Under the pieces are notes generated by a model, which saw only the letters and a list, made by a program, of their open reading frames with translations, had not been told where the DNA came from and made no database searches. Below, piece after piece: positions 45,619-45,795 of a stretch of DNA of 64,000 nucleotides (the stretch's first letter is position 1; every line of letters starts with the position of its first letter). A program made the translations under genes and the position numbers. The stretch is taken from the NCBI GenBank assembly GCA_016715815.1, contig JADJXN010000007.1, positions 5,549 to 69,548 on the forward strand. The letters are read 5' to 3'. Source of the stretch: Oligoflexia bacterium (lineage in GTDB: Bacteria; Bdellovibrionota; Bdellovibrionia; JABDDW01).

Positions 45619-45795
45619 TTAAGTAGGGGGCCATCCAGATGCCCTGCTATTGGGCTTTCCGCCCCCGCCGTCAAAGCCTCCACCGCCTTTTCTTGCTTTT
45701 ACAACGCTTTTAATGTTGCCGTAATTTGTAAGTTTAGGTGATTCATACTTTTTTTTTATTTGATGTTTCTTTTTGTGCTTCTTTATTTTTTTCAT
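45619..45795 (-). CDS. lasso peptide precursor (58 aa), not in the ORF track
   Basis: MKKIKKHKKKHQIKKKYESPKLTNYGNIKSVVKARKGGGGFDGGGGKPNSRASGWPPT; leader motif Y-xx-P-x-L-xxx-G present; GAGGAA Shine-Dalgarno; ATG overlaps the TGA of the cyclase gene (ATGA). Confidence 0.6.
   Translation of the reverse strand: MKKIKKHKKKHQIKKKYESPKLTNYGNIKSVVKARKGGGGFDGGGGKPNSRASGWPPT

Follow-up and report, generated by a model that had tools for sequence, protein, structure and literature searches.

Lasso peptides that are phosphorylated, polyphosphorylated or phosphoglycosylated at the C terminus include paeninodin, ThcoA, SyanA and pseudomycoidin. Two positions are known to carry the phosphate, the C-terminal Ser of PadeA, ThcoA, SyanA and PsmA (PMC8498205, PMC9266682) and Ser3 within the ring of BsfA from Bradymonas sediminis (Duan et al. 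2023, PMC10368454). Here we analyzed a 64,000-nt stretch of the 72.9-kb contig JADJXN010000007.1 (hereafter the window; positions 5,549 to 69,548) from an Oligoflexia bacterium assembly, GCA_016715815.1, in which a 58-aa open reading frame (ORF), termed A, lies between genes for a lasso cyclase (C) and an HPr-kinase-like protein (K). Judged from its position and its relatives, A is almost certainly a genuine lasso precursor. The best overall explanation of the locus is very probably that A is a class II precursor with a predicted Ala1–Asp9 ring, tailored by the kinase, in a cluster that also encodes other tailoring enzymes.

The BsfA cluster resembles the window locus in its gene set of A, B1, B2, C, D, an HPrK-like K, and N. 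Both precursors have the YxxPxL motif at leader positions -17 to -12, counted back from the core, a hydrophobic residue at -2 (Ile in BsfA, Val here), and a C-terminal residue other than Ser. K and BsfK share the catalytic motif H...GxxGxGKS...DD, with 26% identity over 168 aa of the catalytic core (BLASTP, E 2e-13), and both hosts belong to predatory or delta-proteobacteria-like lineages. However, the kinases are only distantly related, and BsfK targets ring Ser3, whereas the predicted window ring, ARKGGGGFD, contains neither Ser nor Thr. The BsfA core, GTSGNEVDGSTPADRGNNPGD, is acidic and unrelated to the predicted window core, ARKGGGGFDGGGGKPNSRASGWPPT, which is basic and Gly-rich, and the BsfA ring has eight residues compared to nine in the window.

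The paeninodin group shares with the window locus an HPr-kinase homologue, which there acts on the linear precursor, as well as split B1 and B2 proteins, an N gene of the NTP_transf_5 type, and class II peptides lacking Cys. By analogy with these peptides, the window system is considered to work in the manner of class II lasso peptides tailored by a kinase and a nucleotidyltransferase. Unlike A, which ends in Thr and whose family mostly ends in Ala, the precursors of the paeninodin group all end in the phosphate-accepting Ser. Their gene order is not C, A, K, and their cores have no sequence similarity to that of the window.

A belongs instead to a large metagenomic family of small peptides from many soil and water bacteria, encoded in the order cyclase, peptide, kinase (the C-A-K family), with the consensus KKPYRxPRLxVHGDLRxLTx in the leader followed by AKGGxxxDGxGKPxT[KR]xxGxxA in the core. 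These peptides resemble A in the slot between cyclase and kinase, the leader motif and leader length, the co-occurrence of B1, B2 and N, the K-G-G of the ring, the D-G-G-G-K-P stretch after it, and a hydroxyl residue followed by Arg or Lys. A differs from them in having Val rather than Thr at -2, a 9- rather than 8-residue ring, Ser rather than Thr at the conserved hydroxyl position, a Trp in the tail, a longer Lys-rich N terminus, and two full Gly tetrads. No description of the C-A-K family or of a characterised member was found in the literature searched, and an earlier bioinformatic listing is possible.

An HPrK-like protein paired with a PqqD-like protein also occurs in the SynChlorMet cassette (ScmC), and the sequences suggest that this pair is common to the lasso locus and to another type of peptide-modification cassette. 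The SynChlorMet cassette is built around radical-SAM/SPASM enzymes and is not known to involve a lasso cyclase and B2. The kinase of a cluster on an Acidobacteria fosmid (PMC9064862) is of another type, an aminoglycoside phosphotransferase.

The precursor gene and its signals

An earlier note made from the DNA letters alone had described A as a minus-strand ORF with an ATG start, translationally coupled between cyclase and kinase, and each of these details was borne out (Table 1). The ATG of A (45795-45793) overlaps the TGA of the cyclase gene (45794-45792) in a 4-nt ATGA. The GAGGAA Shine-Dalgarno sequence at 45806-45801 lies in the cyclase 3' end, and its GAGG is separated from the ATG by 7 nt. 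The TAA of A (45621-45619) is followed by a 6-nt spacer, TGTTCA, and then by the kinase ATG at 45612. A was not unannotated, as the note had it: GenBank holds it as MBK9294682.1 (IPM57_09610), a "hypothetical protein" of the Oligoflexia metagenome-assembled genome (MAG). A weak hairpin (7 pairs, 3 of them G-C) with a T-rich run is present at 45815-45836 on the minus strand, in the cyclase 3' end just upstream of the Shine-Dalgarno sequence of A; it could influence how the mRNA is processed or how much A is made relative to the enzymes, or be chance.

Residues 17-26 of A (YESPKLTNYG) match the lasso leader consensus as the note had claimed. No acidic residue other than D42 occurs past E18 or in the core; the note had described D42 as the only one in the C-terminal half. 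The strict pattern Y..P.L...G occurred twice in the six-frame translation of the window, compared to 0.86 occurrences expected from shuffled sequences, and only the copy in A fell in a short ORF. The motif by itself is weak evidence and not significant. What lifts A beyond chance is its position in the slot between cyclase and kinase together with its conservation among relatives. No second precursor was found elsewhere in the window. The other strict match lies inside the N protein, where the segment YPRPGLRAHGDIDL (~37730-37770, minus strand) resembles the leader consensus YRxPxLxVHGDL. This candidate was rejected as a chance resemblance: the segment is the conserved nucleotidyltransferase motif RPxGDxDLL, and its P-x-L portion was not conserved among the at least 30 N homologues compared. 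A parallel that the note had drawn with the MccJ25 leader also proved to be chance, with 5 identities in 18 positions and 79% of shuffles equalling or beating the 18-mer match in some register.

A widespread precursor family

A word-indexed homology search with the A peptide alone returned only A itself, and relatives were therefore sought via gene context. Scanning one genome per species with an alignment of K yielded 53 loci, which were thus chosen through the kinase. They came from Gemmatimonadota, Acidobacteriota, Nitrospirota, Methylomirabilota, Actinomycetota, Chloroflexota, Desulfobacterales and another Oligoflexia MAG. A homologous small ORF was located directly upstream of the kinase gene in about 48 of the 53 loci, and the consensus of these ORFs was KKPYRxPRLxVHGDLRxLTxxKGGxxxDGxGKPxTRxxGxxx. 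Using tblastn with the window genes, we found a cyclase gene upstream in 47 of the 53 loci, B1 in 39, N in 37 and B2 in 30, and homologues of the ABC ATPase and the ABC permease in 14 and 5 loci, respectively. The three closest K homologues had the same cyclase-peptide-kinase layout, and the 4-nt overlap between the cyclase stop and an in-frame peptide start recurred in 13 of about 43 loci. The earlier note had allowed that its leader match might be chance, unconserved at homologous loci. Homologues were instead present in nearly all of them, and in an alignment of 39 of the peptides (MAFFT; alignment A2) the motif residues were Tyr in 38, Pro in 39 and Leu in 37.

Because these loci had been picked via the kinase, a reverse test was made starting from the peptides. 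The A2 profile matched 232 unnamed peptide clusters of 46–65 aa at E ≤ 1e-3 among 5.8 billion proteins, with a best E-value of 3e-19. Four profile-found peptides were looked up by exact sequence, and all four were preceded by a cyclase gene and followed by an HPrK-like gene, while PqqD, Transglut_core3 (B2) and NTP_transf_5 genes lay nearby. A phmmer search of 1.84 billion representatives with the A peptide alone returned seven small relatives at E ≤ 1e-3. At E ≤ 0.1, 37 of the 39 aligned family members matched NF033528 and 34 matched NF033521, which are lasso precursor or leader models.

A was the most divergent member of the family, with identities of 17–44% to the other members. It nevertheless carries the family core signature of K36-G-G, D42-GGGG-K47-P48 and S50-R51. 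The note had regarded the two Gly tetrads flanking F-D as unlike known lasso cores. This held for the characterised precursors in supplement 2 of PMC10368454, none of which has a similar core, but the tetrads are not a unique oddity, as they exaggerate the family consensus xKGGxxxDGGGKPxTR. Variation in precursor number was also seen among the relatives: four genome loci (L002, L005, L006 and L028) contain two separate precursor genes, and one relative, P0244, has two leader-plus-core repeats in tandem within one ORF of 133 aa.

The kinase and its predicted target residue

K had 386 homologues, with identities of roughly 34–43%. In an alignment of 35 of them, H119, G135, G138, G140, K141, S142, D158 and D159 were invariant. 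These residues match those that were important in the mutagenesis of BsfK and are conserved in PadeK, ThcoK, SyanK and PsmK (PMC10368454). The K family profile matched crystal structures of HPrK/P (E 5e-6). The AlphaFold2 model of K had a predicted local distance difference test score of 92.5, and Foldseek searches returned the PEPCK and HPrK/P folds. The catalytic motif His...Lys-Ser...Asp-Asp is intact, and the HPrK-like fold is confirmed at the level of the predicted structure. K homologues, including the kinase genes of L068 and L070–L072, bear the precomputed Pfam label PF27840 "ScmC", and these hits are flagged as faint.

In the family, the alignment column for core position 3, the site used in BsfA, had 5% Ser or Thr. 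The column of Ser50 (core Ser17) had a hydroxyl residue in 37 of the 39 A2 peptides (95%; Thr in 34, Ser in 3), and the next residue was Arg or Lys in 35 of 38. Any other core column had at most 49% hydroxyl residues. Among the top 120 profile matches, which served as a second sample, Thr followed by Lys or Arg stood seven residues past the ring Asp in 118. Since the kinase is conserved beside all the peptides and the Ser50 column is the one conserved hydroxyl, we predict phosphorylation of core Ser17 in the KPNSR segment of A, equivalent to Thr15 of the family. This assignment, inferred from the alignment, is held with slightly less than even confidence. The note had proposed Arg18 and Trp22 of the core as plug residues; Arg18 is plausible, as it aligns with the conserved Arg/Lys, but Trp22 was found only in A among the aligned peptides.

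The note had instead pointed to the C-terminal Thr (core Thr25, Thr58 of A) as the kinase substrate, which would keep the same precursor with a paeninodin-like modification. The lasso kinases characterised before BsfK all act on C-terminal Ser (PMC8498205, PMC9266682), A does end in a hydroxyl residue, and among the 49 genome-locus peptides used for counts by position, 12 ended in Thr and 4 in Ser. However, in A2 the C-terminal residue was Ala in 15 of 39 peptides and Ser or Thr in only 10 (26%; Ser in 2), and among the 120 profile matches it was Ala in 82, Thr in 14 and Ser in 9, giving 23 with Ser or Thr (19%). A kinase conserved beside all peptides of the family cannot depend on a C-terminal hydroxyl, and BsfK demonstrates that the site can be internal (PMC10368454). 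The note's statement that known kinase-type lasso peptides end in Ser is also outdated in view of BsfA, whose last residue is Asp and whose phosphate sits on Ser3 of the ring (PMC10368454). The C-terminal Thr is thus a poor candidate, and phosphorylation there is rather unlikely.

Predicted cleavage register and ring size

In characterised systems the YxxPxL motif spans positions -17 to -12 and binds B1 there (PMC10368454). When the Tyr was fixed at -17, Thr fell at -2 in 47 of the 49 genome-locus peptides and in 119 of the 120 profile matches; the two exceptions among the 49 were A and L053, both with Val. In A2, the column of Val32 contained Thr in 37 peptides and Val in 2. The register is therefore sound across the family. 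The MAFFT alignment placed V32 in the Thr(-2) column, A34 at core residue 1 and D42 at the ring acid, and put the extra residue of A inside the ring. A then reads S-V-V(-2)-K(-1) at the end of the leader and A1-R-K-G-G-G-G-F-D9 at the start of the core. Core position 1 was Ala in 16 of the 49 relatives and in 87 of the 120 profile matches, and the 39 residues of the D42 column were 34 Asp and 5 Glu.

The ring acid was at core position 8 in 41 of the 49 peptides and at position 9 in four (A, L011, L023 and L048). Together with P0245, the latter three relatives have a 9-residue ring and the same leader length as A. P0245 was the best small phmmer match to A, with 57% identity over 42 aa, and is located between B2 and a cyclase gene on contig L067. 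Its leader reads YHSPTLTNYGSIAQLT(-2)K and its core ASKGGRYLD9GGGS, which with the split LTK/ASKGGRYLD gives Thr at -2 and a 9-residue ring. The note had arrived at Val in the Thr(-2) position, the core given above, and an Ala1–Asp9 ring by applying the usual spacing, and the register of the relatives and the alignment support all three. Cleavage between Lys33 and Ala34 with an Ala1–Asp9 ring is likely on these alignments. Natural kinase-type precursors with Ile or Val at -2 are documented, and BsfA is processed in vitro (PMC10368454); Val(-2) is thus a recognised exception that does not exclude A from the lasso precursors.

A register shifted by one residue would place cleavage after Ala34 and give a core beginning RKGGGGFD with an eight-residue Arg1–Asp8 ring. 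An 8-residue ring is found in 41 of the 49 relatives and in all 120 profile matches, and R-K-G-G-G-G-F-D aligns without a gap to x-K-G-G-x-x-x-D, so the shifted core keeps the family spacing. On the other hand, the shift moves Tyr to -18 and brings Lys to -2, which violates the leader spacing seen in 49 of 49 relatives, and Arg occupies core position 1 in none of 169 family members. In addition, the leaders of L011, L023, L048 and P0245 are of unchanged length, and it is their rings that contain the extra residue. We consider the shifted register improbable.

Genes of the cluster

The positions of the lasso genes and their signals are listed in Table 1. The cyclase, A and kinase genes form a compact minus-strand unit that begins with a promoter-like site and ends with a terminator-like hairpin. 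The number of promoter-like sites in the region was not above that in shuffled sequences. None of the seven lasso ORFs is disrupted, and their catalytic motifs are kept.

Table 1 Features of the predicted lasso peptide locus (positions are those of the window).
Feature	Position	Strand	Evidence or remark
Precursor gene A, 58 aa	45619..45795	-	ORF and translation as quoted in the earlier note
A leader, residues 1-33	45795-45697	-	
A predicted core, residues 34-58, ARKGGGGFDGGGGKPNSRASGWPPT	45696-45622	-	Stop 45621-45619
YxxPxL leader recognition motif, Y17-E-S-P20-K-L22 (-17 to -12)	45730..45747	-	
Val32, leader position -2, normally Thr	45700..45702	-	
Ala34, predicted core residue 1, N-terminal amine of the macrolactam	45694..45696	-	
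Asp42 (core Asp9), predicted ring acceptor	45670..45672	-	
Ser50 (core Ser17) in KPNSR, putative phosphorylation site	45646..45648	-	Alignment
GAGGAA Shine-Dalgarno sequence of A, within cyclase 3' end	45801..45806	-	
HPr-kinase-like peptide kinase (K), 316 aa	44662..45612	-	Weak PF07475 (Hpr_kinase_C) and TIGR04352 (HprK-related kinase A) matches
Lasso cyclase (C), asparagine-synthase homologue	45792..47681	-	PF00733 Asn_synthase, PF13537 GATase, NF033535 E 1.6e-105
Leader peptidase B2, transglutaminase-core, divergent from C	47727..48146	+	PF13471 E 1.8e-19
B1, PqqD-like recognition element for ribosomally synthesised and post-translationally modified peptides	38108..38395	-	NF033536 E 4.2e-19
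N, NTP_transf_5 nucleotidyltransferase, directly downstream of B1	36976..38103	-	PF14907 E 2.5e-32
ABC-2 permease, candidate export/immunity (D)	48159-48944	+	PF01061, weak
ABC ATPase, candidate export/immunity (D)	48933-49616	-	PF00005
Promoter-like site upstream of cyclase, TTGTTA, 18 nt, TATACT	47697..47726	-	Consensus match only
Terminator-like hairpin ~50 nt past kinase stop	44598..44614	-	Consensus match only

The cyclase ORF as listed started at TTG 47726. Because the NF033535 match started only at residue 16 of that ORF and an AGGAGG lies 5 nt before ATG 47681, the true start is probably ATG 47681. The listed TTG abuts the B2 ATG at 47727, and with the start at ATG 47681 the divergent intergenic region (47682-47726) leaves 45 bp for both promoters. 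B2 scored 78.4 bits on NF033537, for which the cutoff is 33, and its Cys...His-Ala-Trp motif is present. For B1, we considered whether the Tyr thought to contact Thr(-2) had been lost as a match to Val(-2). This was rejected, as B1 retains GTYFGLN as in BsfB1. B1 also weakly matched ScmD (TIGR04248, E 9.5e-4).

Five genes lie between B1 and K, encoding a PMT_2-like membrane glycosyltransferase (38370-39641, minus strand), which overlaps the start of B1, an MBOAT protein, and three proteins without assigned function. The PMT_2-like gene recurs in 4 of the 53 related loci (L032, L038, L047 and L052) and in L069 (6565-8118), where it again adjoins the PqqD gene. It may therefore be an accessory tailoring or export-side enzyme rather than an unrelated insertion, and part of the apparent insertion may belong to the cluster. 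The remaining four genes, within 39704-44677 (383-aa, MBOAT, 432-aa and 334-aa proteins), had no homologue in the 53 related loci. The proteins encoded at 39704-40855, 42310-43608 and 43673-44677 had no sequence match in Pfam, NCBIfam or the PDB and were not counted as part of the lasso system. The 334-aa gene converges on the kinase gene and overlaps its 3' end by 16 nt.

On the other side, the lasso genes adjoin a polysaccharide-type block (49653-55453) with two GT2 glycosyltransferases, of which one carries a fused methyltransferase. The block also contains a C-methyltransferase and an AlgX-like SGNH protein with a second MBOAT. Downstream of this block is a 1461-aa ORF (56105-60490, plus strand).

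Integrity of the locus

Several observations weigh against a functional, kinase-tailored class II lasso peptide from this locus. On the lasso precursor models, A scored 23.4 bits on NF033528 (E 4.3e-5) and 15.1 bits on NF033521 (E 0.018), below the cutoffs of 33 and 19, respectively. No close relative of the window locus was found against which its odd features could be compared; when metagenomes were scanned for such relatives with the cyclase, the matches had only 25–38% identity, all with partial query coverage. Val(-2) can impair cleavage by B2, and the I(-2)V change in BsfA nearly abolished it (PMC10368454). The conserved Thr/Ser of the tail could serve target binding or act as a plug instead of accepting phosphate. 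Furthermore, B1 and N lie 6.3 kb from the C-A-K unit, and most of the intervening genes are absent from related loci. A truncated rve-type integrase ORF of 133 aa (36217-36618, plus strand) is located beside N and hints at past transposition near the split cluster. Given the separation of B1 and N and this integrase fragment, the cluster could be rearranged or inactive.

The locus might accordingly be read as a decaying or silent copy, in which A shares ancestry with lasso precursors yet gives rise to no mature lasso peptide. The displaced N and B1 genes, with four of the five intervening genes lacking homologues in the related loci, the integrase fragment, the divergence of A within its family, and the block of BsfA cleavage by changes at position -2 (PMC10368454) all fit this reading. 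Against it, the seven lasso genes are intact, the tight coupling of cyclase, A and kinase and the Shine-Dalgarno sequence are preserved, naturally occurring precursors can have Val or Ile at -2 and BsfA does undergo processing (PMC10368454), and the PMT_2-like gene beside B1 recurs in five other loci. Decay is quite improbable. The weakest alternative, that A is a chance open frame encoding nothing in an AT-rich intergenic or overlapping region, could appeal to the frequency of short ORFs in a genome of 37% G+C and to a strict motif expected about 0.9 times per window, but it has a negligible probability and is already refuted by conservation, with homologues in the same slot across at least eight phyla, profile E-values down to 3e-19, and relatives retrieved by phmmer with A alone.

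Proposed biosynthesis

For A as a functional precursor, the following pathway can be proposed by analogy with described systems and from the family alignment. B1 would bind the leader through Y17xxP20xL22, and the HPrK-like kinase would phosphorylate the linear precursor, as PadeK and BsfK do. Lasso kinases act on the linear precursor with the help of B1 (PMC10368454). B2 would then cleave the Lys33–Ala34 bond while Val32 occupies the -2 pocket, and the cyclase would link the amine of Ala1 to the side chain of Asp9. The 16-residue tail GGGGKPNSRASGWPPT would thread the resulting 9-residue ring. N may next add a sugar to the phosphate, like PsmN, a nucleotidyltransferase of the same type that adds a hexose to the phosphoserine of pseudomycoidin (PMC8498205, PMC9266682). 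The ABC proteins would export the product. The lasso peptide has a predicted monoisotopic mass of 2352.147 Da, which rises to 2432.113 Da on addition of one phosphate and to 2594.166 Da with the phosphate and one hexose.

Implications

The precursor call itself is what RODEO-style mining would yield, and the family-level prediction is the part worth testing. It holds that A is a divergent member of a very widespread family, with at least 232 peptide clusters in at least eight phyla, whose kinase phosphorylates a mid-tail Thr/Ser next to Arg/Lys, after which N may glycosylate that residue; from the sequences compared, this combined proposal seems possible rather than probable. The window locus has the defining precursor feature of neither known subtype, the C-terminal Ser or ring Ser3. 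If the proposal is true, the mid-tail residue would add a third to these two sites at which lasso peptides are phosphorylated, and a phospho or phosphoglyco group beside the Arg plug might help to lock the thread.

Within the family, the Val(-2), the 9-residue ring and the Ser-for-Thr exchange of A are natural variants for studying B2 specificity and the range of ring sizes that the cyclase tolerates. The annotation of MBK9294682.1 and of several hundred unnamed homologues can be changed to lasso precursor. The core AKGGxxxDGxGKPxT[KR] is nearly invariant across Acidobacteriota, Gemmatimonadota, Nitrospirota, Methylomirabilota, Actinomycetota, Chloroflexota, Desulfobacterota and Oligoflexia, which is unusual for lasso peptides. 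If the family-level prediction is true, such conservation of the core across phyla would point to a shared physiological role rather than to a strain-specific antibiotic.

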